From Lachnospiraceae bacterium (GTDB lineage: Bacteria; Bacillota_I; Bacilli_A; RFN20; CAG-449): a stretch of DNA of 64,000 bases. The notes below the pieces were generated by a model that saw only the letters and a program-made list of their open reading frames with translations, was not told the DNA's origin and did no database searches. Location: NCBI GenBank assembly GCA_963648895.1, contig CAVJGK010000001.1, positions 26,745 through 90,744 of the forward strand. Reading direction: 5' to 3'. Position 1 is the stretch's first letter, and each line of letters starts with the position of its first letter. The translations under genes were made by a program, and so were the position numbers. Positions 6,810-62,914 of the stretch are shown here, piece by piece.

Positions 6810-6903
6810 TGGCAAGTGTGATAGGACTCGAACCTACTCCCGCGGTTGTGGGCGCCGCTACCCGGTTTTGAAGACCGGTGTGCTACCATTACACTACACA
6901 CTT
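6810..6903 (-). tRNA. suppressor tRNA with anticodon UCA (reads UGA), class II with long variable arm
   Basis: Hand-folded. Acceptor AAGTGTG/CACACTT with G73 and encoded CCA. D arm GTGT-AATGGTA-GCAC. Anticodon stem CCGGT/ACCGG with loop CUUCAAA (U33, anticodon UCA, A37). Roughly 24-nt variable arm with GCGG/CCGC stem. T arm GTAGG-TTCGAGT-CCTAT. Confidence 0.8.
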
Positions 6904-7919: not shown

Positions 7920-8243
7920 TTATTTAATTAATTCCTCTATTACTTTATCTAATGAGTCTTTTTCTATATGATGTTGACTCCCATTAATAAATCCATGATA
8001 GCGCTCTATGTCATTGGCATAGTCATAGTCGAAGTAGATATTAATTCTAATCCTTTGTAGTTTTTTACCAAAACCCATAATGCATTCGCCAGTGTCTGGG
8101 TCTAGCCCACGCAATCCTGATTCGTCGATACCCAAATTTTCTAGTTCTTCTCCAAACTCAATGAATTCATTTATAATTTCTTTGCTAACACCAGCATTCA
8201 CAAGCGCTTCCATAAAAGATTTTTGAGTTGTGTAATACATCAT
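7920..8243 (-). CDS. small LGF-motif family paralog (subtype B)
   Basis: ENLGIDES motif and C-terminal LDKVIEELIK. Aligns with 8247-8582. Confidence 0.5.
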   Translation of the reverse strand: MMYYTTQKSFMEALVNAGVSKEIINEFIEFGEELENLGIDESGLRGLDPDTGECIMGFGKKLQRIRINIYFDYDYANDIERYHGFINGSQHHIEKDSLDKVIEELIK

Positions 8244-8246
8244 AAT

Positions 8247-8582
8247 CTAAGCTTCTCCTACATCAGTTAACACTTTTATTAATTCGTCAAGGGTGTCTCT
8301 TTCAAATCTCTGATAATGCCCAATAATTCCTACATAATATGTTCTATTATTAATACTTCCGGAATCATAGACACACTGGAGTTTAACTCTGATCCCTTGT
8401 ATATATTTAGAGTACCCTAGAAAAAATTCTCCTGTATGATCGTTAGAGGTTAGGTCAATCAAACCATCCATACCGAGGTATTTTATTTCGCGCTGAAAAT
8501 CAAGAAAATTATTTATAACTTCATCATCCGCGCCTGCACTTACTGCTGCATTTAAAAAAGCTCCTCCATCTTTATAAATCAT
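8247..8582 (-). CDS. small LGF-motif family paralog (subtype B)
   Basis: YLGMDGL motif and C-terminal LDELIKVLTD. Confidence 0.5.
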   Translation of the reverse strand: MIYKDGGAFLNAAVSAGADDEVINNFLDFQREIKYLGMDGLIDLTSNDHTGEFFLGYSKYIQGIRVKLQCVYDSGSINNRTYYVGIIGHYQRFERDTLDELIKVLTDVGEA

Positions 8583-8585
8583 ATT

Positions 8586-8915
8586 TTAATCTCCTGTCTC
8601 ATCAGTTAACACTTTTATTAATTCGTCAAGGGCGCTTCTTTTGAATCGTTGGAAATTTCAAATAATTCTCTCATAATATGTTGTATTGTTTGCAGAATCA
8701 TAGACACACTGGAGTTTAACTCTGATCCCTTGTATATAGTTAGAGAATCTAAGCAAAAATTCACCTGTACGATCGTTAACGGTCAAGCTTATGTAACCCT
8801 CCATGCCAAGGTCCTTCATTTCACCCTCAAAATTGGTGAATTGCTGTATAGTATCTTCATTAGCGCCCGCCTTCCGTGCTGCTTCAAAAAAAGACGCTTT
8901 ATCTCAATATATCAT
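8586..8915 (-). CDS. subtype-B paralog containing two in-frame TGA codons
   Basis: Starts MIY[TGA]DKASFFEAARKAG... Second TGA at 8658-8660. The full-length alignment to 8247-8582 continues through both TGAs to a conserved C-terminus ALDELIKVLTDETGD and a TAA stop. Identical 34-40 nt stretches are shared with the neighbouring copy. Confidence 0.5.
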
Positions 8916-8918
8916 ATT

Positions 8919-9269
8919 TTAACCCCCTAAAACTTGGTTCATCAGTTCATCAAAAGTATTCGTGGTATATCCTTCTATAACTTCATATACTCCATCTTCG
9001 TCCTCTTTATAAATCCCACACATAAATGGAGAGTAATCCTCAGGAATTTCATCCGGCGTAACAAAAATTACTTCTATATAGGTTGATTCTATCTGAGTGC
9101 TAAAAATTGCACAATGACTATTGAACTCATTATAATCGCCCATATCGGGTTCTTGTAGTGATTCTTGAACATTATCGAAACCTAGATTAAGTAAAGTATC
9201 CCGATAGTAAGAATATTCTTTTATTTGATTAGCATCTTTTAACTTTTCACAAAATTCATTAAATTTCAT
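8919..9269 (-). CDS. small LGF-motif family paralog
   Basis: LLNLGFDNV motif and C-terminal FDELMNQVLGG. Confidence 0.5.
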   Translation of the reverse strand: MKFNEFCEKLKDANQIKEYSYYRDTLLNLGFDNVQESLQEPDMGDYNEFNSHCAIFSTQIESTYIEVIFVTPDEIPEDYSPFMCGIYKEDEDGVYEVIEGYTTNTFDELMNQVLGG

Positions 9270-9273
9270 TAGT

Positions 9274-9579
9274 TTACTCCATTAGTTGTCGTAAGAGCGA
9301 GTCTAGATCGTCTGCCATGAATTCAGCAGCATCATGGGATGTAAATGCGACAAATCGTTTCTCACGGGGAATCAGCCTCAACTCGTCGTTTGTATTTATG
9401 TATACTTTTAATGGAGGGTAGTGATAGGAGATCCAGTAACTTTGTGAGTTGCTGATACTAGCATCTGAATATACAAACCCCAGATCATGTAACTGATTGA
9501 TAGCATCTTCTATCTCTTTTCTAGCAGATTCATCTTTAAAAGTTTGCACAAACTTAACTTCTATTTCATTAAATTCCAT
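9274..9579 (-). CDS. small LGF-motif family paralog
   Basis: QLHDLGF motif and C-terminal LDSLLRQLME. Confidence 0.5.
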   Translation of the reverse strand: MEFNEIEVKFVQTFKDESARKEIEDAINQLHDLGFVYSDASISNSQSYWISYHYPPLKVYINTNDELRLIPREKRFVAFTSHDAAEFMADDLDSLLRQLME

Positions 9580-9580
9580 A

Positions 9581-9856
9581 TTATTTCATTACCTCAGCGA
9601 TCATCTCTTCAAAATTTTTGCTTGAGCTAATAAGCACACCCTTAAACGAAGCAGAATACACTATACCAGTTGCAAAGGAGTCAATTTTTATAGCTAACCA
9701 ATTATCACCGAGATCATATAAATAACCTAGATAGTCTGGTCTACCGCATTGAAATTTAACCCCAAATTCATGCAAAGTTTTTATGTTTTGCTTAACTATA
9801 TTTCTTTGTGCTTCATCGGGAAGACGATCTAGAAAATCTAATTCTATTAAGTTCAT
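9581..9856 (-). CDS. small LGF-motif family paralog (subtype A1)
   Basis: TLHEFGV motif and C-terminal NFEEMIAEVMK. Confidence 0.5.
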   Translation of the reverse strand: MNLIELDFLDRLPDEAQRNIVKQNIKTLHEFGVKFQCGRPDYLGYLYDLGDNWLAIKIDSFATGIVYSASFKGVLISSSKNFEEMIAEVMK

Positions 9857-9858
9857 AA

Positions 9859-10161
9859 TTACTTCGTAAGCAACTCCAATGCTTGTTTTAATGTGTTTGT
9901 TTTACAAAAGTCAGTTCCGTTAACCATAACTGCTATATGACTACATTTAGGGTAAGGGTATCTCTCACGATTACCTAAATATATGTCCACCAGAAATGTT
10001 TTATCCCCGCCTCGCACCATTCTATGATATTCTATCCCGTATGGGTCACTATACTTAAGCTTGAATCCAAGTGAGCGCAAAGTAGTTATCTCTTCTTCTG
10101 CCTCTTCGAGCGCTCCAGTATTAGGTAGGTTTTTTGCATATATAAGTTCACGACTATTCAT
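9859..10161 (-). CDS. small LGF-motif family paralog (subtype A2)
   Basis: TLRSLGF motif, then HIAVMVNGTDFCKTNTLKQALELLTK. Confidence 0.5.
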   Translation of the reverse strand: MNSRELIYAKNLPNTGALEEAEEEITTLRSLGFKLKYSDPYGIEYHRMVRGGDKTFLVDIYLGNRERYPYPKCSHIAVMVNGTDFCKTNTLKQALELLTK

Positions 10162-10163
10162 AT

Positions 10164-10469
10164 TTAGTTTATTAGCTCCTCGAGCATTTCTTCAAAATTT
10201 TGCCCTTTATAAATAAGTTTTGCGGTAAAAAAAGCATCAGGTTTTGTATTAAGAAAAGCAGTATATGATATATGGGAATTGTCCAATGCTGCAATGATCA
10301 CCTGTAAATAAGTGTTTTCTACAACGTCAAAGTCATAAAATAGATTACTTTCATCGCCTATCCCAAATGTAAATCCAAATTCAGTCAGTCTTTCTATGTT
10401 AGCTTTAGTTGTATTTCTTAATTCCTCACCACGAAGACTATCTAAAAAATCTAATTCTATTCCATTCAT
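10164..10469 (-). CDS. small LGF-motif family paralog (subtype A1)
   Basis: RLTEFGF motif and C-terminal NFEEMLEELIN. Confidence 0.5.
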   Translation of the reverse strand: MNGIELDFLDSLRGEELRNTTKANIERLTEFGFTFGIGDESNLFYDFDVVENTYLQVIIAALDNSHISYTAFLNTKPDAFFTAKLIYKGQNFEEMLEELIN

Positions 10470-10472
10470 ACT

Positions 10473-10768
10473 TATTTTGTTATCTCCTCAAGTGCCTGTT
10501 CTAAATTATTTGCATCGCAAAATCTTGTTCCATTCACCATGACTTTTATATGAGGACCAAGTGAGTCATACTCACAATTTCTTACGCGTATAACGATAGG
10601 AAATCCTCTTCCATCCACTTGTATCCTTCTGATGTAATCGATTCAGTACGTACCACTGTATCTAAATTGAAACCCTAAATCGTACAAAGTAGTTATTTCT
10701 TCTTCTACCTGTTTTCTCATTTCTTTATTAGAGAAATCTTTTATAAATTTACGTTCATCATTATTCAT
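10473..10768 (-). CDS. subtype-A2 paralog containing one in-frame TGA
   Basis: MNNDERKFIKDFSNKEMRKQVEEEITTLYDLGFQFRYSGTY[TGA]IDYIRRIQVDGRGFPIVIRVRN...VMVNGTRFCDANNLEQALEEITK. Full-length alignment to 9859-10161 passes through the TGA at 10643-10645. Confidence 0.5.
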
Positions 10769-10770
10769 AT

Positions 10771-11070
10771 TTAGTCCACCAGTTCCTCCAGTGCTTGATC
10801 CAACGTGTCAGTGTTACAAACAGCATTTCCATTAATCCAGACTGCTATATGTTGAACGCCAGGTTTATATAGTACAGGATTTCTCAAAAAAATAATTACA
10901 GGTTGTATTCTGTTGTCACCATATACTACCTTGGTATATTTTAATACGTTAGGAGTATAATTTTTAAGTGCAAACCCAAGTTCAGATAAAGTAAGTATTT
11001 CGTCTTCTACCTGTGTCTTTAATTCCTCGCCATCCAGGTTTTTTGTAAATTCTAGTTCATTTTTATTCAT
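10771..11070 (-). CDS. small LGF-motif family paralog (subtype A2)
   Basis: TLSELGF motif, then HIAVWINGNAVCNTDTLDQALEELVD. Confidence 0.5.
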   Translation of the reverse strand: MNKNELEFTKNLDGEELKTQVEDEILTLSELGFALKNYTPNVLKYTKVVYGDNRIQPVIIFLRNPVLYKPGVQHIAVWINGNAVCNTDTLDQALEELVD

Positions 11071-11071
11071 T

Positions 11072-11347
11072 TTAATTCATCAGCTCCTTCAATACTTGCG
11101 CTAAGTCAGCGCCTTCACAAATAGTATTGTCGAAGTGCTGCACTTGAATGCGAGAGTCTTTATTAAAACTATAAATAGCAAGTTCTAGTTGTGCTTTGGG
11201 ATAAGCATAAAATACTACGTAAAAATTTGCACTATAACCAGCATAGTTAAAACCAAGCTCATGCAAAAGGGTAATCTCTTCTTCTGCCTGATGCTTCATT
11301 TCATCAGTGGGCATCTTTTTTATAAACTCTAGCTCATCTTTATTCAT
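11072..11347 (-). CDS. small LGF-motif family paralog (subtype A1)
   Basis: LLHELGF motif and C-terminal LAQVLKELMN. Confidence 0.5.
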   Translation of the reverse strand: MNKDELEFIKKMPTDEMKHQAEEEITLLHELGFNYAGYSANFYVVFYAYPKAQLELAIYSFNKDSRIQVQHFDNTICEGADLAQVLKELMN

Positions 11348-11348
11348 C

Positions 11349-11666
11349 TTAGTTCATTACCTCCTGGAGTACTTGGGTTAAATCATTGCCTTCACCAATG
11401 ATAGTAAAAAAGTGTGCTAGTTCAATGCGAGCTTTTTGACCTGTTACTTTCTCTAAATTATAAATATAAAGTGCTATATTAGGCACTTTTGGATATTTAT
11501 AGTGTATCATGCTAAATAGTATAGTACTGCCACCATACACAAAACCAAGTTCATGCAAAAGGTCCATGTCTTCTATTGTTTGTTCTTGCATTTTTTTCGA
11601 TTGAAATCCCTCTATAAATTTGATTTCATTATAATCATAACTTTTCTTCATACATTTATTATACAA
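11349..11666 (-). CDS. small LGF-motif family paralog (subtype A1)
   Basis: LLHELGF motif and C-terminal LTQVLQEVMN. Confidence 0.5.
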   Translation of the reverse strand: MYNKCMKKSYDYNEIKFIEGFQSKKMQEQTIEDMDLLHELGFVYGGSTILFSMIHYKYPKVPNIALYIYNLEKVTGQKARIELAHFFTIIGEGNDLTQVLQEVMN

Positions 11667-11670
11667 TAAA

Positions 11671-11710
11671 AATAAAAATATGTAAAATAAAAAGCTGATT
11701 GCTCAGCTTT
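11671..11710 (-). terminator. rho-independent terminator
   Basis: Hairpin AAAGCTGA-(GCAA)-TCAGCTTT (11691-11710), followed on the coding strand by TTATTTTACATATTTTTATTTT. Confidence 0.55.
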
Positions 11711-11722
11711 GTTAAATAGTTT

Positions 11723-12073
11723 TTAGCTTAATTTTTCTATTAAGTAAACAGTTACACTTGCGTTTTTGGTCTCTGAGCCCATTACAGCACCATTATATTT
11801 ACCATATGCAGTTACGCCGTAATAGCAACTTAATACTCCTGTTGAAGCATTATATGATTTTGTGAAGGAACCCTTGCCATAAGGGTGTTCCTGAATACCT
11901 GAAACACTTACTTCAAAATCACCAACACCACTTACGGATTTAATAAAGAAATTATCAGCAGTTAGCTTTGTATAGTCTACATTAGGCACTAATGTTTTTA
12001 CATTAAAAGATGTTGCTGTTCCTAATAATATTGGGATATTTCCCCCCCCCTTGATCTTAATTAAATTTTTCAT
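11723..12073 (-). CDS. small MKNLIK-family protein (fibre-tip/receptor-binding candidate) with G9 tract
   Basis: 116 aa. Shares the N-terminus MKNLIK with the next gene. Codons 8-11 (KGGGN) are encoded by a G9 homopolymer. Confidence 0.5.
   Translation of the reverse strand: MKNLIKIKGGGNIPILLGTATSFNVKTLVPNVDYTKLTADNFFIKSVSGVGDFEVSVSGIQEHPYGKGSFTKSYNASTGVLSCYYGVTAYGKYNGAVMGSETKNASVTVYLIEKLS
12042..12050 (-). repeat. G9 homopolymeric tract (C9 on the plus strand)
   Basis: tccccccccc at 12041-12050. A 9-nt G/C run inside a coding region of a roughly 30% GC genome. Confidence 0.9.
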
Positions 12074-12084
12074 TTTTTCTCCTT

Positions 12085-12417
12085 TTATTCAAGTACTATC
12101 TTCGAACAACTCATTGAGGTTGTCCAGTTATTTTGACCAAAATATACATTCGCAGTTTGCCCTTTTTCACATATTGCAATTAAATTACCAGTATAACCAT
12201 AAGAAGTGGTATTAATACGTCTTAATAAGGTGACTCCTGTGCTTTCAAGCGTTTGTGCTATAGCACCACTACCAGTCGAAGTTACATTTACGAACACAAT
12301 ACATTTTTCAGTCGCTGTATAAGTGTAACTGTAAACGTAGTTTTGGGTAGCACCAGTTGAAACAAGTGTTGCATTTCCTAGATCTAAACCATTATCATTT
12401 TTAATTAAATTTTTCAT
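12085..12417 (-). CDS. small MKNLIK-family protein, paralog of 11723-12073
   Basis: 110 aa with N-terminus MKNLIKNDNG. The S/T/G/Y-rich composition is typical of fibre-tip proteins. Confidence 0.5.
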   Translation of the reverse strand: MKNLIKNDNGLDLGNATLVSTGATQNYVYSYTYTATEKCIVFVNVTSTGSGAIAQTLESTGVTLLRRINTTSYGYTGNLIAICEKGQTANVYFGQNNWTTSMSCSKIVLE

Positions 12418-12436: not shown

Positions 12437-13150
12437 TTATACAGGTCCACTGCTATAGGTGAAATATCCAGGTGTGCTTGCTGTATCAATTCTAGCATAA
12501 GTTTTATCAATATAGCTTGAATTGTATGTAGTACCATTCTCTCCAACTAGGGATGTGCAACCATAGAACATATTACTTGACGTTGTTACGTTAGTTGTTA
12601 CAAAGCTTGACTTTACATAGATTGCTGTTAAACTTGAGCAATCACCAAACATATAAAACATATTAGTAACATCGCTAGTATCAAAGGTAGACAAATTCAA
12701 GGTTGTTAATTTTGAGCAATAATCGAACATATAGCTCATGCCAGTAACTTTGCCTGTGCTAGTGCTGGACAGATCTAGTGATGTTAAGCCTGAGCACCTA
12801 TAGAACATACCTTGCATATTAGTAACATTGCTTGTATCAAGGTTGGATAAATTTAATGCTACTAAATTGCTACGGTTATAGAACAAATGACTTAAATTAG
12901 TGGCACAAACCACGCCCGCTTCAAAGTTTAAACTAGTGATTGTTCCGGTTGCTAACTGAACAGAATAATTGTCAGCCCAATTACCGATTTTTGTTATATA
13001 AGTCTTACCTACAATCGTTGCTGAAGCAGGTACTGTATAGGAAGTTGAAGAACCGTTATATGCATGTAACCAAATATATCTATCATCTGTTAATTCATAA
13101 TCCCAATCATTTTGTCATGTTGTAGTTGGGAGTCATGTATCCCAATACAT
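12437..13150 (-). CDS. BspA/DUF285-type leucine-rich-repeat protein with two in-frame TGA codons near the N-terminus
   Basis: ATG at 13150-13148 overlaps the TAA of the upstream gene. Reads MYWDT[TGA]LPTTT[TGA]QNDWDYELTDDRYIWLHAYNGSS... into the track ORF. Repeats of the MFxxCxxLTxLDLSxFDTSxVTNM type. Confidence 0.55.
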
Positions 13151-14154
13151 TAGCTTACCTCCGTAGTTACTAAAGTATAAATAGTACCACTTAGTGCCGT
13201 TGCATCTTCTGTATAGAAGGTTAAGCTATTAGCACCAGTATCAACCACATGTGCTACGCTGTCCAGTAGCGCATCATTCATAACTAGATTTTGAACCATT
13301 GAATTAGCAGTTAAACCACTTATGGTAACAGTAGCAGAATATCCATATTTACTATCACTATCCCATTCGCAATAAGAACTCATTTGTGTAGGTGTAACAG
13401 ATACTGTAATATTTGAATGGATAACTGATTTATTTTGCTTAGCTTCTAATGCAGTATTAATTACTTTATTTTGCACTGGGTTAGTCGAGGAACTGCTTAA
13501 TGCACTATCGACAGTTACTTTAGTAGCGCCACTAGCAATACCATCTAGCTTAGATTTATCGCTCGAAGACATCAAACCATTAGCGCTTGTAGTCGCTACG
13601 CTTGAAGTAGGTGGTGTATAGCCTAAAGCGGAGGTAACGTTTGTCTTAGAGACGCTGATTGTTCCGCTTGAGTTTGTTATATTAGAACCTGTTTTCACGC
13701 CACCTAATATGCTTGATGTTGCAGTAGGCAATGAGTAATTATTTGCATTTGCTGCCACACCATCCAACTTAGATTTATCCGATGCTGACATCAATCCAGC
13801 GGCACTAGTAGTTGCATTTGAATAAGTTGTATCCGGTGTAACAATATTACCACTACCTAGGATTGAAGTACCATTAACAGTTTTGATATTAGTTCCTGAT
13901 ACCAATGTAGCTTGCTTACCATTTAAAGTATTAGTAATTACTTTATTCTGAACAGGATTAGTAGAGGATGTACTTAGCGCATCATCAACTGTCACAGTAA
14001 CCGCAATATCCCCACTTCCTAATAATGATTCACCACTAATAGTTTTTATATTAGTTCCACTAACTAATTTATCTTGTTTATTGCCTAAAGTAGACTCAAC
14101 TCATTCTTTGGTTATGAGATCTTTGGTATCTGAAATTTTACCTAAATATTTCAT
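13150..14154 (-). CDS. tail-fibre repeat protein with one in-frame TGA
   Basis: AAGGAG RBS 9 nt upstream of ATG at 14154. MKYLGKISDTKDLITKE[TGA]VESTLGNKQDKLVSGTNIKTISGESLLGSGDIAV joins the track ORF. Reiterated L.NKQ..LVSGTNIKT..G.S.LGSG and SSTNPVQNKVI motifs resemble phage tail-fibre repeats. Confidence 0.55.
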
Positions 14155-14241: not shown

Positions 14242-14559
14242 TTAGTACACCTGCATTATTTGATTCAGTAGCTCATCTAAAGTATCAGCATAATACTCTG
14301 CAATACACTCATAGTTTTTGTTAATATAACCTGTATACTGCATTCGGGGCGAGAAATAGATAGCAATATGAAATGCTTTTTTTGGATCCAAATCCAAGTC
14401 AAACCATATACATAAATCCCTATCATTCAAGTATGTCCCTTGTGGTTCAAATCCTAAATCATGTAATGTCTGTATATCTGCCTCATACCTGGACTTATTA
14501 TTTTCAGACACACAATTGTTTAAAAACCCCTGCTCAATTTTACTGTGCGCTACATCCAT
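14242..14559 (-). CDS. small LGF-motif family paralog
   Basis: TLHDLGFEP motif and C-terminal LDELLNQIMQVY. Confidence 0.5.
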   Translation of the reverse strand: MDVAHSKIEQGFLNNCVSENNKSRYEADIQTLHDLGFEPQGTYLNDRDLCIWFDLDLDPKKAFHIAIYFSPRMQYTGYINKNYECIAEYYADTLDELLNQIMQVY

Positions 14560-14562
14560 ATG

Positions 14563-14877
14563 TTACACTCCTTTTTGCATTAGTTGGTCTAGTAGACTCT
14601 CCAGTGTATTGGTGCTAACATTCAACACTATATCTCTGCCATTATAAGCAGTAGCGTCACACATTAAGGTATCATGTAGGTCAATGACAACATCAATTGA
14701 GTCATTCACTTTTAAATAAGTAATCAAACCACGCTGCGGTCCACACCACTTGTCATTAATCATAAACGTCTGACCGGGTTTAAATCCTAAGTCACGCAAT
14801 GTTTGAATATTTGCTTTTTGCTGAGGTTTGTCTTTCTCTGCAGTCCAATCTAGTAAAGCTTGCTCATTTACATCCAC
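14563..14877 (-). CDS. small LGF-motif family paralog
   Basis: TLRDLGFKP motif and C-terminal LESLLDQLMQKGV. Confidence 0.5.
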   Translation of the reverse strand: MDVNEQALLDWTAEKDKPQQKANIQTLRDLGFKPGQTFMINDKWCGPQRGLITYLKVNDSIDVVIDLHDTLMCDATAYNGRDIVLNVSTNTLESLLDQLMQKGV

Positions 14878-20308: not shown

Positions 20309-20893
20309 TTAAATTCTACCGGGGACAAATCCCTCTGGACAAATCTCTTTGCGCACATTTATAGTTCCATTATTAAACCATTTTAATTTGTGCATTGTTT
20401 CTTTTCTTTTATCTTTCGTCACCTGCGTTTGTTTTTTGCCTAAATTAGCAGCACGTAGTTTTTCTTTGGTTTCTTCTGAAACAGATTTTCCTTTATTTCA
20501 TGGAACTTTTCCTTTATGTGCTTCGCTCATTTTCTGTCTTGCTTCTGTAGATCGCTTTTGACCTTTTAAGCTATTATTCATCTTTTCCTGTGTCTCAGCA
20601 GACCTTTTATACTGGACATTTCTTACTTTTTCTTTAAAGTCATTAGTTCTGTAAACAGATGGAAACTTAATATAATCAGGATGTTCAATATTAAGGCTTA
20701 CGCACTCTAACGAGTTATATTCTATCAAATTTCTCTGCCATTTATCTGGAGAACATCGCCATAATAGGTAATTGCATCTAAGGTGCTCTTCTAAAGGTAA
20801 TTCATCCACAAGCTTAAAATAAGATTCTAGCACATCAGGTAATTCCATTTTAGTGATAAGTTGTTTATAACATGCGTTATACTCAAGTTTCAT
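20309..20893 (-). CDS. NUMOD-repeat homing-endonuclease-like protein with one in-frame TGA
   Basis: The track ORF ends with TGA at 20498-20500. In-frame continuation NKGKSVSEETKEKLRAANLGKKQ (another NUMOD3-like repeat) ends in the conserved C-terminal motif WFNNGTINVRKEICPEGFVPGRI and TAA. Confidence 0.5.
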
Positions 20894-22048
20894 TTATACT
20901 TTCTCCCATACATATATTTTATTACCTGCGCCATAAATCTTGCTCACTGCTTCTTCAGCATATTCTGAAACAATATCTTTATTAGGTAGCATATACCATA
21001 CATTAGGTTCTGTATAACCTACAAGGCGCATTCCTAATACTTCATATTCATGCCCAGCAAACTTATTAAAATCGCAGTAAGCAGTTATTTTATTCGGGCG
21101 ATGCTGTTGTATAAAGTAATTAAACAACTTAGACATTCCACCAGTGACCAAAATGCTATTCTTAGTAGTGTTTTGTGTCAGTTCCCAATCATCATTAACT
21201 TTGCCAAAAGACATTGTCTGAACTAATTCATTATTATAAAATAACCCATAAGTAATCAGCACGCCTGGAATTTCTCGTATTGCGCATTCACTTGCATCTA
21301 TACGCGTTTCCACTTTATTTAAAACAGCACGCAATAACGACTTTATAGTTTCCCTAGTAGCATCATCATTTCATTCCCATTCATAAATATGAATTAAATG
21401 TATTCCTTTATTAGCACATTTTATACTTTTATTTAAGTGATAATACTTATCTGTTCCTGCAATATCGCTATGATAGTACTGCCCATTAAACTCTATTGCA
21501 ACTTGGGCACCAGGAATATAAATATCTAATTCTTGTGGCGGAATAACATTTCTTACATGTGTTAAAACTTCCCCATCATAAATACTTTGTACATAGTTAA
21601 ATATTTCTTGTTCCGGATGTGAACCAGTATGAGTAATTCCGTTGTTAAGATCATCAAAAGAATCCTTTAGTCTTTCGTAATCGTCCTTAGAAATATAAGC
21701 AATATTGCCATTTTTATATGTTTTGATATTCCGATTATTAAGTGTAGCAGCTAATCTACATCGCTTTATCTTATCATTATAATCTACAATATCTTTTAGT
21801 ACTACTATATCAGGATTACTGTGTAATTCATTTATTATTGCCTGCTTATTCTTCTCGGTTGTTATTTTATTAAATAGCGTAGCACAGTTGTGTGTATCAT
21901 AAAATTGTTTTACTTTAGGTAAAGAATCTATAGGAAATTCTCCATTAGCGTTAGGTGCTATTTCCAAGTATTCAAAAATATTCTTTACTGTTCCTTTTGA
22001 TATTCTGAGAGCATCAGAAAACCACCTAACCTTTTTATAAACCATCAT
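20894..22048 (-). CDS. DUF559/Vsr-like (PD-(D/E)XK) endonuclease-domain protein, two track ORFs fused through an in-frame TGA
   Basis: ELDIYIPGAQVAIEFNGQYYH motif. The track ORF ends at TGA 21371-21373. The next 12 codons NDDATRETIKSL run straight into ORF 20894-21334 in the same frame. Confidence 0.5.
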
Positions 22049-48036: not shown

Positions 48037-49020
48037 CTACTTTCCTAAATAATATTTTGGTCCATAAATTAAACTATCAACACCTATTTCATACTCTTTA
48101 TTACATATTAATTTAATACTGTCAGGATTAAACATTGAATAAGTATCTTGAGCTAACTTTAGTGCTTCCTCTTCAGTTTTACCCTTTTTAATTGCCTTCT
48201 CATAAGTTTCATGAATCTTAGATTGGTTCTCATCTTCATACCAACCATCACATACAATATAAGGGTCGACTGACCATGGAGTAAAAGAACATTTTTCATT
48301 TGCTGCTTGTACCATTAATTCGCAAAGACGCTCTGCAACTCTTTCTTGATTCTGTAGAGGTGCTTCACAGAAAACTTCATCATGGATGGTAACCAGCAAT
48401 CTAGCACCTAACTGTTTTAATTCTTCGTCATTATTAATTAAAATCATTGCAGATTTTGTCATTGTAGCAGCAGAAGATTGAATTCTAGCATTTAATGTTT
48501 GTCTTAATGCTCTACTAATAAACGCACTATTATTACGTACTTTTAATCCATCTGTCTCTGCACGCTCCTGAACACTTTGCCTTGCTATTTTAGTTTTAGC
48601 TTTTTCGAGTTCTTTTGTATATTTTTTAATCTTTACTTCTAACTGCTTATCTTGATGCTCCCGTGCGCCAATAAAAGGATTAAAATAATCTTTCTTAACT
48701 TTTTCTTCTATTGTATATAGGGGTAATTGCGCATCAGGTAAATGTCTTCTTCTACCATAGATATTAGTGACGTATCCAAGTTTCTTTGCCATTTCCTGTG
48801 AATCTTTTGTAAATTTATCAACTGCTTTAAATCCATCATAATACGCATCAATAATAGAATTTGCTTCAGTTACAGGTAATTGCATTCTTTTTGCAAGTGT
48901 TGGTGCAGACATTCCATAGTTAACACCGAGGAATACCTGTTTCGCTTTTGATCTTCGCTCCTTACCTTCTTGTGATTGTATTACTGTAACATTTGAATGT
49001 CGTTTTACTTTTATTTGCAT
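48037..49020 (-). CDS. DNA polymerase I (family A), C-terminal segment (motifs B and C)
   Basis: RSKAKQVFLGVNYGMS (motif B, R..K...FG..YG) and LLVTIHDEVFCEAP (motif C). Confidence 0.7.
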   Translation of the reverse strand: MQIKVKRHSNVTVIQSQEGKERRSKAKQVFLGVNYGMSAPTLAKRMQLPVTEANSIIDAYYDGFKAVDKFTKDSQEMAKKLGYVTNIYGRRRHLPDAQLPLYTIEEKVKKDYFNPFIGAREHQDKQLEVKIKKYTKELEKAKTKIARQSVQERAETDGLKVRNNSAFISRALRQTLNARIQSSAATMTKSAMILINNDEELKQLGARLLVTIHDEVFCEAPLQNQERVAERLCELMVQAANEKCSFTPWSVDPYIVCDGWYEDENQSKIHETYEKAIKKGKTEEEALKLAQDTYSMFNPDSIKLICNKEYEIGVDSLIYGPKYYLGK

Positions 49021-51209: not shown

Positions 51210-52916
51210 TTAAACCTCCAACAAATAATAATTATCTTGCTTTATTATATTTTTAATAGTCTCAACATTATCTTCTGATTCCAGCTTATCACCAACTTTT
51301 AATTGATTTACAAATACCCAACCATTATCAGTTAGTACTTCTTCTGTATCCTCAATCTTATAAGTAGAATCTACGCTTTCTACTTGACGCTCATCTATAG
51401 TTGGTTCAAAAATCATTCTAACTGTTTTATCATGAGATGGAATATTTTGTAAGTTAGGATTTGATGACGCAAATCTTCCTGTAACAGTACCAATAGGGTC
51501 AAATCTACCATGTACTCTGTGATTTTTATCTACGCCCGCAGGAATAGCATCAATGAATGTAGTAATAAGAATGTCTACCGCTCTTTTTTCTTTAATTAAT
51601 TCACAAACTTTAATATGCTCTTCTTCAGCTAATTGGTCTAAGATTTCTTTACCTGTTCCGCGTGGTTTATCCTTATTAACACTTGGTGCTTTAAGAATGT
51701 CATATAAAAATATTGCTAATTGAGTATCTGAATTTAAATCAATAGGATCAGATAATTTTTCTGCGGGAGTTTTACTTGCCCACTTATACCTCTTCTTTAA
51801 TTTTTGGTCATAATAAGGGTATTGCTTTTCAATCTCTGCTTCTGATAATTTAGTCTTCTTTGGAGCATACACGGGTTGTCTAGTGTTTGCTTCAGGAGTT
51901 AACTTCCAATCATCAATTAATTTTTGATTTGCTTTTACTTCTTCATCAATCTCTCTTTGTTTCTCATCAGACTTTGCATGATAAATAGTAGACATCTTAT
52001 CTGCATACTCTGTGTTAACATAAACACCTGCTGTTTCCATATCGACTACAACATCTAAAATTGGGATTTCTACTTTATATAATAAATCTAATAGTTCTTT
52101 ATTTTCAGGTCTAGTTAAAATCTCAAATTGATATTCTTGTAATTTAAAAGTATCATAACTATCTGTAGCAGCATATAGTGCAAATAGTTCAGGGTCAAAC
52201 ATAGCATAAGGAAAACCTGCAAATAAATGCTCTATGTCGTATCTTTCTTGCGTTGGATCAATATGTAATCTGTATTGTGCTTTTAAACCTTTAAGCTCAT
52301 TTTCATTTATTAGATGTGCACCTACTTGAGTATCCCAATCAACATGTACTCTTGTTCCAGTTGTTTGCTGAAGAACTTCAATATCAAATATTGCGTTATG
52401 AAATATAGTATAAGTATTACCTAAACGTTTAAGTTGTTCTGCTATTTGTGATTCTGTAAGTTGTCCTTCTACTAAATCACCCATAATAACTTGCTCTTTA
52501 CCTTTTTCATCATATTCAACTGTAAATTTTCTATGATTAACAGGAACATATGCTGCTTTCATGCCTGGAGTATATAAACAAAGACCCATCAATTTACAAT
52601 CTTTAAAAACTTCTAATGTATTATTAGTTTCGGTATCTATTGCAATCTTTCCGTTTTCTAACGCTTTATCAATATACTTTTTATAATCTTCATAAGTTCT
52701 AATTACAATAGTATTTTCGGCATATCTTCCTAAAATCTGATACACTTGTTCCCTAATTAATTGCATCTTATCATAGATAGAAATATAAGAAGATTTTAGT
52801 TTTTGTTGAACTGTTAAATTTTCTAACTTTTTAGGTGCTCTCGCTTTTTTAAGAATAGACTGAGTATCTTCTTCTTTTAAAGTAAATTCTTCACCCCACA
52901 GAGATAATTGTTCCAT
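51210..52916 (-). CDS. DNA polymerase I (family A), N-terminal segment (3'-5' exonuclease plus N-terminal polymerase domain)
   Basis: 568 aa. Conserved SSNPNLQNIPSHDKTVRMIF block just before the expected position of motif A. Ends with a TAA. Confidence 0.7.
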   Translation of the reverse strand: MEQLSLWGEEFTLKEEDTQSILKKARAPKKLENLTVQQKLKSSYISIYDKMQLIREQVYQILGRYAENTIVIRTYEDYKKYIDKALENGKIAIDTETNNTLEVFKDCKLMGLCLYTPGMKAAYVPVNHRKFTVEYDEKGKEQVIMGDLVEGQLTESQIAEQLKRLGNTYTIFHNAIFDIEVLQQTTGTRVHVDWDTQVGAHLINENELKGLKAQYRLHIDPTQERYDIEHLFAGFPYAMFDPELFALYAATDSYDTFKLQEYQFEILTRPENKELLDLLYKVEIPILDVVVDMETAGVYVNTEYADKMSTIYHAKSDEKQREIDEEVKANQKLIDDWKLTPEANTRQPVYAPKKTKLSEAEIEKQYPYYDQKLKKRYKWASKTPAEKLSDPIDLNSDTQLAIFLYDILKAPSVNKDKPRGTGKEILDQLAEEEHIKVCELIKEKRAVDILITTFIDAIPAGVDKNHRVHGRFDPIGTVTGRFASSNPNLQNIPSHDKTVRMIFEPTIDERQVESVDSTYKIEDTEEVLTDNGWVFVNQLKVGDKLESEDNVETIKNIIKQDNYYLLEV

Positions 52917-60697: not shown

Positions 60698-62914
60698 TTA
60701 AATTTCATGCTTCCAACCAGATGATGTTTTTACCCACACATCAGTAACACGCTTCCAACCCGCATCCACTTTAATATATGCTGATTGAATGTCTACCCAT
60801 GCAGGGACATCTGTAGAAGATTTTTGTATTTTTATTTTCTTACCTGTTTTTACCCAAACACCATAATACTTAGGAATATTATCTTTGTTATCCCAAGGCA
60901 AATAGCGCTCTTTATCAGTAATAGAAACAGTATAAGAAGGAATTAAATTATTAGTAACACTTGCTTCAATATCATCTATTGACTCGTATACACCATAAGT
61001 ATTCCAGAAATCATTTGGTAATTGGGAAGTCCAACCTACGAATGAATGATCTTCCCATACTGGCGCATTCATTTTCCAAACAGAACTACTGGTAATCATT
61101 GAAGCGTCATACCACTGTCTGTCTGGATTTTTCCAAACACCATTATAATAAATAAAATCTACATAGTGCGGAACTTCTGACCAAGAAGCAACTAATTCAT
61201 ACTTAGTTTGTCCAGTAGCATAGAATGCATCATCTAAAGTTGCGCCTGGCGCATATGATAATCCATTGATTGTCCATGCTTTAAATAATCTACTATTATC
61301 ATTATAAGTAGGAGTTATAGTAGGCAAAGTTGCTGCAGTGCCATAAGTCTTACTAATAGAATCTATCTTAGTTGGTGTTATTGCACTTGATGTTGCATTT
61401 AAATTAAATGAAACTGTGTATGTAACAGGTGCCCATATCGCAATTAAAGTAGAATCTGCTTTAAACTTAGTCGTTGATGTAACCTTTATTCCATTATATT
61501 GCCATTCTTTAAATGTATAACCTGTTCTTGTAGGTGTTGGTAAGGTTCCTATCGCAGTTTCTGTTATTGAGCTTCCACTTTGTGCCCATTGAGCAATAAA
61601 TGAACCTGGTCTAACTACCCCGCTTCCACCAATTTGAACACCAGTATCTCCCCCAGAAGTGGTGTACCAATTACTTTTTGCAGTATAAGACGTTTTAGAA
61701 TTACAAGAAATAATTGAGTCCGAACAAGCAGAACCTCCATCACTATTATAATGAATAGTAACATTTGTTTTACCTGAAACATCATAAGTTAATTTATATA
61801 AACTTGGTCAAGAGGTGGAATTATTTTCTAGAACATTACTAATTTCCGCCTTAGTTGGTCTTGTTTGATCTGTGCCAGCACTAAATGTCATAATTGGATA
61901 CCATTTAGCATATAAGGTCATATTAGAATCAGTAGAAACAGAAGTAACTTTTGTTCCGTCCTCTTTATACCAACCAGCAAATTTATAACCATCTCTTGTT
62001 GGTGTTGGAAAACCTGAAAAAGATGCTTTAGATGTTACATCAGTAGTAGAACCGCCATTAGACCAGTTTGCCCAAACTTCTTGATTTGCAATACTAACTG
62101 TATCTCCTGCATTCTTACCATTATTCCAACCAGTAAAATTATATACAGTTGTAGTTCTAGTACTCGCTGAACCGGTTAAAGAACTTACCGAACTTCCACC
62201 ATTTGAATTAAAATATAAATAAACAGTTTTAGTTCCAGTAGAGGTCTCATTAATTGAAGAACTTGAGACACCTGGGCAAGTTACAGTTTTTCCGGTCCAT
62301 CCTGTGTAAGTTGATGTTCCAGAAACAGAACTTCTAGACGTTTTAAACGTCATTGTCATTTTATTACTGTCTGTAAAAGGTGATATAAGAGAAACTGTTG
62401 GGGTGCCGATTGTCATTGTGCCACTAGATGATGTGACTCCTTTATACATAGTTACATTGCCTGTCCAACTTTCAGTTGTTTTAGCACCTAGGGTAAATGT
62501 GTAAGAGTAGTAGGCATCACCTAGACCTCATTCTTGTTTTAAATCATTATAGCTACGAATACCAATATACCCGGATGTATAGGCATTACCCCCCTCAGAG
62601 GTTCCTCTTCTAAGTGTTATCGACGGTATTACCATTCGCAAGTCATACGCAAACGAGGCGCTACTATTCTTAGCAAGACATATATAGACGGTTACTGTAG
62701 TATTACCCGATCCATCACTTTGTGGGGAACACCTAACAGCTAATTGTGGTTGAATATAGCTGGGATTTGACACTTTTCCTGTTCCACCATACTCTGAAAA
62801 GGAAATGGTACAGTTATTATAAGCGAGGAACTGATCTCCATTAGTGCATGTTCATGATGTACTGCCACCACCATAGACTGATGAGTAATTGCCATTAGGA
62901 TAATAAACTGCCAT
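60698..62914 (-). CDS. receptor-binding/tail-fibre protein with Flg_new-type (Y.F.GW) repeats, containing three in-frame TGA codons
   Basis: AGGAG RBS 8 nt upstream of ATG at 62914. TGA at 62852-62854, 62528-62530 and 61808-61810 join track ORFs 62528-62773, 61808-62449 and 60698-61327 into one 738-codon frame. Repeats GFPTPTRDGYKFAGWYKEDGTKVTS, GTLPTPTRTGYTFKEWQYNGIKVTS and YNFTGWNNGKNAGDTVS. Confidence 0.55.

Follow-up and report, generated by a model that had tools for sequence, protein, structure and literature searches.

The window, that is, the whole 64-kb stretch of DNA analyzed here, belongs to a large phage of about 117 kb. The locus of interest is a minus-strand cassette of four genes transcribed in the order fiber, LRR, A, B. 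The fiber gene (13150..14154) encodes head-fiber repeat motifs and contains an in-frame TGA at 14101-14103. The ATG of the next gene, which encodes a BspA-type LRR (DUF285) protein (12437..13150), overlaps the fiber stop codon (TAATG) and is preceded by a GGAGG site; two in-frame TGA codons in this gene (13133-13135 and 13115-13117) are read as Trp. Gene A (12085..12417) encodes a protein of 110 aa, and gene B (11723..12073), which ends in TAA, encodes a protein of 116 aa (MKNLIKIKGGGNIPILLG...). The ribosome-binding site of gene B, AAGGAG (12079..12084, minus strand), is a strong one; it lies 5 nt 5' of its ATG and abuts the gene A stop codon. An intrinsic terminator consisting of an 8-bp stem and a T run (11691..11710, minus strand) is located 13 nt past the gene B stop, and the strong promoter of the next gene (11686-11658) matches the sigma-70 consensus at 11 of the 12 positions. 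Given that the terminator comes right after gene B, this gene is the last of its transcription unit, so that a frameshift turning it off would have no polar effect. The initial annotation had placed the two small genes upstream of the LRR and fiber genes; because the cassette is on the minus strand, they are in fact downstream (3') of both.

The cassette is flanked on both sides by an array of at least 12 paralogous genes of about 100 aa (7920-11666 and 14242-14877). The products of these genes share a ..L.ELGF.. motif near the N-terminus and an ..ALEEL.. motif at the C-terminus, and match no Pfam or PHROG family. The fiber cassette, whose GC skew is unlike that of the neighboring genes, looks like an insertion into the array. 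Within the window, the phage also encodes a family A DNA polymerase, a clamp, and a clamp loader. The polymerase is divided between two ORFs with some 2 kb separating them, one containing the exonuclease and the N-terminal part of the polymerase domain (48037-49020) and the other its C-terminal part (51210-52916); the interval, in which there are several TGA codons, could represent either an intervening element or a region of recoding. The types of lysin and holin, together with one relative found in a Roseburia MAG, suggest that the host is a Gram-positive anaerobe.

Besides the fiber and LRR genes, in-frame TGA codons are present at 62528-62530, 61808-61810, 21371-21373, 20498-20500, 10643-10645, and 8658-8660. 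The TGA-bearing genes include, in addition to the two in the cassette, those for a Flg_new-like protein of at least 740 aa, two endonuclease-like proteins, and two of the small array paralogs of about 100 aa, and no in-frame TGA was found in the replication genes. These codons read sensibly as Trp (..ITKEwVES.., MYWDTwLPTTTwQNDW.., ..HIYEWEwNDD.., and ..KVPwNKGK..). The phage encodes a tRNA with the anticodon UCA and an unusual extra arm of about 20 nt (6810-6903, minus strand). By comparison with Escherichia coli tRNA-Trp, this tRNA has what we take to be Trp-like identity features, namely, A1:U72, G5:C68, G73, and a Trp-type anticodon stem. Assignment of TGA to Gly (code 25) was considered, since two paralogs contain Gly at the aligned position, and was dropped in favor of Trp because of these identity features. 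Under the standard code, gene calls split the TGA-bearing genes. The overall pattern resembles partial recoding of TGA to Trp, a type that has been surveyed previously (bioRxiv 10.1101/2021.08.26.457843).

The gene B product consists of a leader, MKNLIKIK, three glycines, and an all-beta C-terminal domain (hereinafter C-domain) of about 105 aa. The sequence encoding MKNLIK, ATGAAAAATTTAATTAA(G/A) (12056..12073, minus strand), is identical to the start of gene A over 17 nt, and related phages retain this leader as MDNLIK. Beyond these 17 nt and an LGxAT motif, genes A and B have nothing in common: gene A encodes the same leader followed by an unrelated all-beta body, BLASTP aligned only residues 1-21 of the two proteins (E = 0.046), and the profile comparison yielded a probability of 0.2%, with no detectable homology between the bodies. 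The two genes had been described as paralogs of an MKNLIK family; the shared leader stands, and the paralogy of the bodies does not. The suggestion that gene A might complement gene B falls with it, given that the neighbor is not a true paralog.

On the plus strand, positions 12042-12050 read CCCCCCCCC (C9); with 83 of the 85 ORFs of at least 90 aa encoded on the minus strand, this run is G9 in the coding sense. Gene B starts ATG AAA AAT TTA ATT AAG ATC AAG GGG GGG GGA AAT (MKNLIKIKGGGN), and the tract falls on codons 8-11, where it is read AAG GGG GGG GGA AAT. The G9 run and the KGGGN sequence that it encodes near the N-terminus had been noticed in the initial annotation and are confirmed here, with the GC content, given there as about 30%, corrected to 31.8%. 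This is the sole G/C run of at least 7 nt within the 64 kb, the next longest being two C6 runs. The expected number of C9 runs is 0.014 under a model of independent, identically distributed bases; a run of this length appeared in 1 of 300 first-order Markov simulations (mean 0.003) and in 1 of 100 dinucleotide shuffles. Long A/T runs are depleted relative to the first-order Markov expectation (2 observed versus 16.6 expected for T runs of at least 8 nt, 0 versus 6.4 for T runs of at least 9 nt, and 1 versus 6.0 for A runs of at least 8 nt), so that no other homopolymer in the window, whatever its base, is as long as G9. This depletion suggests selection against slippage-prone runs everywhere except at the G9 tract. 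The codons of the tract are unusual, too: GGG is the rarest Gly codon here (9% of Gly codons), AAG accounts for 29% of the Lys codons in the window, and only 1 of the 36 Gly-Gly codon pairs is GGG-GGG, namely, that of the tract itself. The probability that K-G-G-G would be encoded as AAG GGG GGG GGN is about 0.002. The G9 run is therefore real, is not expected by chance, and consists of codons that are atypical of this genome. A scan of the locus for tandem repeats and notable RNA structure found none.

Loss of one G would convert the gene B product into a 16-aa peptide (MKNLIKIKGGEISQYY), and gain of one G would yield a 23-aa peptide, in accord with the truncation anticipated from inspection of the sequence; both truncations are identical under codes 11 and 4. 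Each of the two shifted frames meets a stop codon within 12 codons, whereas G6 and G12 would keep the gene in frame. The tract thus combines several features that fit a contingency locus: a G/C homopolymer above the usual threshold of at least 7 nt, a 5' coding position within the first dozen codons, early stops in the other frames, over-representation with respect to both composition and codon usage, and lack of polarity.

Searches of the Pfam, PHROG, and NCBIfam databases with the gene B product detected no match. The family of its C-domain includes 848 representative clusters at E ≤1e-3 and 260 at E ≤1e-10, in which this domain can stand by itself or in tandem copies, or else form the extreme C-terminus of a longer protein; several such longer proteins contain the glycine-rich domain PF12810, and one shows weak matches to tail-fiber PHROGs. 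The C-domain represents an uncharacterized family that is widespread in phage fiber modules. AlphaFold modeling of the gene B product yielded a confident (pLDDT 87), mostly beta structure with a disordered leader. In fold searches, the best PDB match was SecB (E = 0.095), with no receptor-binding fold matched, and the only BFVD matches were uncharacterized siphovirus proteins; a sequence profile search against the PDB was negative as well. The genomic context is more informative. The gene for P0002, a homolog with 50% identity to the gene B product, is located between the Dit/Tal and holin-lysin genes of a siphovirus contig (L002), and homologs of gene B likewise lie between Dit/Tal or fiber genes and holin-lysin genes in a second siphovirus (L223) and in a podovirus (L227). 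More generally, homologs of A and B are found at the distal end of tail/fiber modules, before holin and lysin, in both siphoviruses and podoviruses. This context in four phage contigs assigns gene B to the fiber, or host-recognition, module, and its product may be located in the virion. Behind the initial description of the product as fiber-tip-like stands its gene context; the predicted fold matches no known receptor-binding domain.

For gene A, a homolog with 67% identity (P0158) is encoded in the fiber module of a temperate siphovirus, and there are weak matches to tail-fiber PHROGs (E = 0.0045). In a low-confidence model of this protein (pLDDT 61), the best fold matches were to the receptor-binding head domain of Tuc2009 and to carbohydrate-binding modules, none of them significant. 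The idea that gene A is a homolog of the tract-bearing genes of loci L002 and L003 (see below) was entertained first and was not supported by BLASTP.

The gene located directly behind that for P0158 in the temperate siphovirus (about 44 kb) also carries a G tract. The respective contig is present in four assemblies (L223-L226), which are 100% identical over 810 nt. This gene starts ATG GAT AAT CTA ATT AAA ATT GGGGGGG T ATT AAA and thus has the same leader as gene B (MDNLIKIGG), with a G7 tract (6369-6375 in L223) at the same place that is out of frame. As it stands, the sequence encodes a 31-aa ORF, and G8 would restore an intact ORF of 118 aa, of which the 3' part is annotated as a separate gene of 76 aa. 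The protein cluster of this 76-aa fragment holds an intact 118-aa ortholog (P0160) from an 18-kb phi29-like podovirus (L227-L229), in which the corresponding site is GGG GCA GGT (GGGGCAGG), that is, the tract is interrupted and in frame. Over 360 nt, the siphovirus gene shares 90.3% identity with that of the podovirus; the two differ by 34 mismatches and a single gap, which lies in the tract. Once the missing G is added back, dN/dS comes to 0.14, and no further lesion is present. The position of the sole gap, the low dN/dS, and the absence of further lesions indicate that the siphovirus G7 gene is not a decayed pseudogene and so would represent a recent or reversible OFF state.

The podovirus gene is preceded by a gene for a 767-aa fiber, the last 107 aa of which are 65% identical to the C-terminus of the fiber encoded in the window; the siphovirus carries the same fiber C-terminal domain on a 151-aa gene. 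This shared domain, together with the homologs of A and B, points to a cassette of fiber, (A), and B that is common to three unrelated types of phages; to judge by their accessions, the assemblies behind all three stem from a single sequencing project. Structural variation within the host-recognition module of a single strain was also observed: compared with L223 (4721-6001), a deletion in L224 (1263-2060) fuses the 270-aa and 151-aa genes into one gene of 265 aa, the remainder of the locus being identical. In addition, L002 and L223 are contigs 7 and 1, respectively, of assembly GCA_963650535.1, each containing one fiber-module gene with an out-of-frame G7.

A second leader family is linked to the same C-domain. 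In P0002-P0004, the closest homologs of the gene B C-domain, the short leader is replaced by a 38-aa N-terminal module (MTLNELFANIANAIREKSGG...STT), and homology to the gene B product starts right after the tract, at PILLGTATSF. MAFFT aligned NLIKIKGG of the gene B product with NAIREKSGG, and at the aligned site, the gene for P0002 reads AGT GGT GGT, without a tract. No tract was found at this site in any of the nearest C-domain homologs (P0002-P0006), and it is absent from the C-domain family of gene B. The second leader, MTLTELF..IA.AIRSK.GG, occurs just upstream of orthologs of the gene B C-domain. The gene of L002 immediately upstream of that for P0002 has the same N-terminal module and is frameshifted by a G7 tract (9568-9574); with G8, it would be a 151-aa ORF with an N-terminus matching the module. 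The equivalent gene of L003 (Logan assembly of SRR13434624) contains G8 and is in frame and intact at 138 aa, and MAFFT aligned the tract site of both genes with that of the window. The initial annotation had named lack of a repeat at this site in homologs, combined with a non-structural protein, as evidence against a switch; P0002-P0006 have no tract there, and the siphovirus gene that shares the leader has G7.

Among the first 92 loci fetched (489 kb), there were five G/C runs of at least 7 nt, a count that precedes identification of the siphovirus tract of L223-L226; three of these runs (the window, L002, and L003) occupy the aligned leader site. The fourth, in an IMG/VR contig (L046; IMGVR_UViG_3300045988_170340), splits another fiber-module gene and is a similar out-of-frame G tract from an independent data set. 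There, a G7 run at 2428-2434 splits a 187-aa ORF (2204-2950; ..ILERIGLTTDVGG|ANTGTVLGKLNALF..) that would require G8 or a -1 shift to be read through; an IADAIRSK-module gene and the lysis genes follow it shortly downstream. The 83 matches to the IADAIRxK N-terminal module from 80 IMG/VR loci contained no G run longer than 5 nt, indicating that the tract is specific to a clade and is not a general feature of this module. A homology search with the tract-bearing gene of L003 returned only this gene itself. Because of such tracts, genes are missed or split in gene calling, and three of the homologous genes discussed here are uncalled or truncated in public annotations; conversely, G tracts could serve as cheap markers for accessory receptor-binding genes in viromes.

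Between lineages, the tract thus differs in length: it is G9 and in frame in the window, G7 and out of frame in the siphovirus, and interrupted and in frame in the podovirus, and in the second leader family, it is G7 or G8. Within lineages, no length polymorphism was seen in the material available, which comprises one sample and two assemblies for the window phage, both with G9, and four assemblies for the siphovirus, all four with G7. The independent Logan assembly of SRR13434711 is identical to the window base for base at this locus, including G9, and exact look-ups of the protein products of A, B, and the next gene recovered this one sample only. A Megablast comparison of the region with 50,697 phage records produced no match, and exact-flank DNA scans of the JGI metagenomes and IMG/VR that allowed any tract length detected no second copy of the window locus; a flank scan of IMG/VR for the L002/L003 type was negative, too. 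A degenerate scan (GCN ATH MGN NNN AAR NN G7) retrieved 130 loci from IMG/VR and JGI, all of which were dismissed as chance matches, and leader scans of IMG/VR with ATGRANAAYYTNATHAARATH(AAR)GG picked up nothing but unrelated 'MxNLIKIG' starts. For the hypothetical alleles G6 and G12 of the window gene, G5, G8, and G11 of the L223 gene, and G5 and G8 of the L002 gene, there were 0 matches in a collection of 15 billion catalogued proteins. The leader-linked tracts (the window, L002, L003, and L223-L226) come from Logan assemblies of runs within the range SRR13434624-SRR13434714 and from GCA_9636... assemblies; judging by these accessions, we take them to belong to one sequencing project, in which case the platform may have affected the G runs. 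Random error is made less likely by the fact that pipelines and runs agree.

Because related phages carry the tract at other lengths, one of them out of frame, a slippage-prone switch appears to be the most likely explanation of the G9 tract, and we consider it somewhat probable that the phage actually exploits it as such, with an elevated slippage rate and reversibility being presumed. Comparative features also fit a contingency locus: across diverged genes, the position of the tract seems to be kept while its length is not, and the apparent OFF allele is otherwise perfect. Under this scheme, slipped-strand mispairing during phage DNA replication would add or remove a G at a rate far above that of base mutation, the tract being replicated by the phage's own family A polymerase with its clamp and clamp loader. 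Alleles with G9, or with G6 or G12, would keep B on, those with G8 or G10 would encode a truncated B, and switching would hit B alone. The A and B proteins share an architecture in which the leader, M-K/D-N-L-I-K, is followed by a flexible Gly stretch and then by a variable beta domain, and the leader could dock both proteins onto the fiber. The progeny would then include both virions that carry the B domain and virions that lack it, which would amount to bet-hedging on host recognition. The phase-variable switch proposed in the initial annotation is accordingly upheld in its anatomy, since the tract is non-random, 5'-located, and truncating and its length differs between phages, but not in the respect of polymorphism within a lineage.

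The strongest competing explanation, which we regard as unlikely albeit worth serious consideration, is that the tract is an incidental Gly linker between leader and domain that arose by mutation or recombination at a module boundary and that may slip without being exploited by the phage; the frameshifted siphovirus G7 gene would then be a defective or dispensable copy. The tract does lie exactly at the junction of the conserved leader and the variable C-domain, the podovirus ortholog works with an interrupted tract, C-domain homologs lack it altogether, and G7 is fixed across the four siphovirus assemblies. However, GGG is the rarest Gly codon, and long homopolymers are purged from the genome. 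Furthermore, at least two leader families and three types of phages have long G runs at the same position of the leader, and such recurrence is unlikely for a neutral feature at 32-35% GC; also against this reading is an OFF allele that is an otherwise perfect ORF with a dN/dS of 0.14.

Programmed slippage of the ribosome or of RNA polymerase, which would either set the ratio of two products or rescue the G7 genes, is improbable. It draws some support from the fact that the out-of-frame tracts of L002, L046, and L223 are all G7 and all require a -1 shift, two of them being in the G_GGG_GGG phase. Against it, an efficient -1 site requires A or U at the YYY positions, and most of the documented polymerase stuttering concerns A/T runs of at least 9 nt. 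In gene B itself, reading in the 0 frame already yields the full protein, and the shifted frames stop within 12 codons, so that there is no second product. Structure z-scores are 0.03 for a segment that covers the window tract and -0.43 for the 80 nt that follow this tract, and the downstream z-scores for L223 (-0.28), L002 (-1.69), and L046 (-0.74) similarly indicate no stable structure. The lack of a second ORF and of downstream structure makes programmed slippage unlikely for the window. Even less credible is a sequencing or assembly artifact, that is, a miscalled run or poly-G from two-color chemistry: homopolymers are error-prone and the leader-linked examples apparently come from one project by their accession ranges, but G9 is in frame in a complete ORF in two independent assemblies, the siphovirus G7 is found in four assemblies from at least two runs, and the flanks are unique coding sequence in contigs with otherwise intact genes.

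A broader possibility, which we put forward tentatively and hold to be rather doubtful, is that leader and poly-G together form a portable module combining docking with a stochastic switch, which recombines in front of different small beta-domain adhesins and is common to podoviruses, siphoviruses, and large phages of one community, with A and B being alternative tips that compete for a single docking site on the fiber. If so, unrelated phages of the same host would hedge recognition with one exchangeable switch.

Several known systems resemble this locus. PolyG tracts in receptor-binding genes have been reported in Campylobacter phages (Sorensen et al. 2021, Cell Rep 35:109214, as cited in PMC10877375). 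As in those phages (Fletchervirus), to the extent that they are described in that source, G tracts occur here in low-GC phage genes of the receptor-recognition apparatus. There, according to the same account, frameshifting yields phenotypically mixed progeny, which we propose for the window phage by analogy. Unlike the Campylobacter phage genes as they are presented there, to which it shows no sequence relationship, gene B is an accessory gene of 116 aa and not a large receptor-binding protein gene. The contingency loci of T2 and T4 are similar in that a coding single-base repeat of at least 6 nt is involved, at which polymerase slippage shifts the frame; for a 9-nt repeat of T2 agt, a mutation rate of about 7e-4 per read is given (Gomez, Barrick and Waters, bioRxiv 10.1101/2025.10.21.683753), and the same preprint describes contingency loci of other phages as well. 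T2 alone contains 168 such repeats, most of them A/T, whereas the window contains a single outlier, G9, in a homopolymer-depleted genome, and its position, unlike that of the T2/T4 repeats, is conserved across unrelated types of phages. Simple repeats of coliphages are under-represented in tail-fiber genes (bioRxiv 10.1101/2025.10.21.683753), which counts against reading the tract as a switch.

The anatomy of the locus is also that of bacterial contingency genes (Campylobacter, Neisseria, Haemophilus; Orsi et al. 2010, PMC2831843), which are surface-interaction genes with a G/C run of at least 7 nt in the first codons and quick stops in both shifted frames. Unlike in bacteria, the polymerase here is a phage-encoded family A enzyme, and the unit of selection would be the virion population. 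Movement of a fiber gene and a small downstream gene as a cassette between morphotypes, which we see here in a large phage of about 117 kb, a 44-kb siphovirus, and an 18-kb phi29-like podovirus, has a parallel in Alteromonas phages (PMC10579305); in the available part of that report, the small gene encodes a chaperone ('cap'), with no mention of a homopolymer switch. The best, non-significant matches of the gene A model (E = 0.02-0.07) are the receptor-binding head domains of lactococcal phage Tuc2009 (BppL, PDB 5e7t/5e7f) and carbohydrate-binding-module-type beta sandwiches, which gene B, unlike the gene A model, does not match. The best reading of the locus, with switching as its presumed property, is therefore that of a further example of the known phage polyG/contingency loci, unrelated to them in sequence. 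If the tract does switch, this phage would join the short list of those that use homopolymer slippage to diversify host recognition, extending the phenomenon beyond Campylobacter phages and T-even coliphages to a phage of an uncultured community, with a switch that would travel with the host-recognition cassette between unrelated phage morphotypes.
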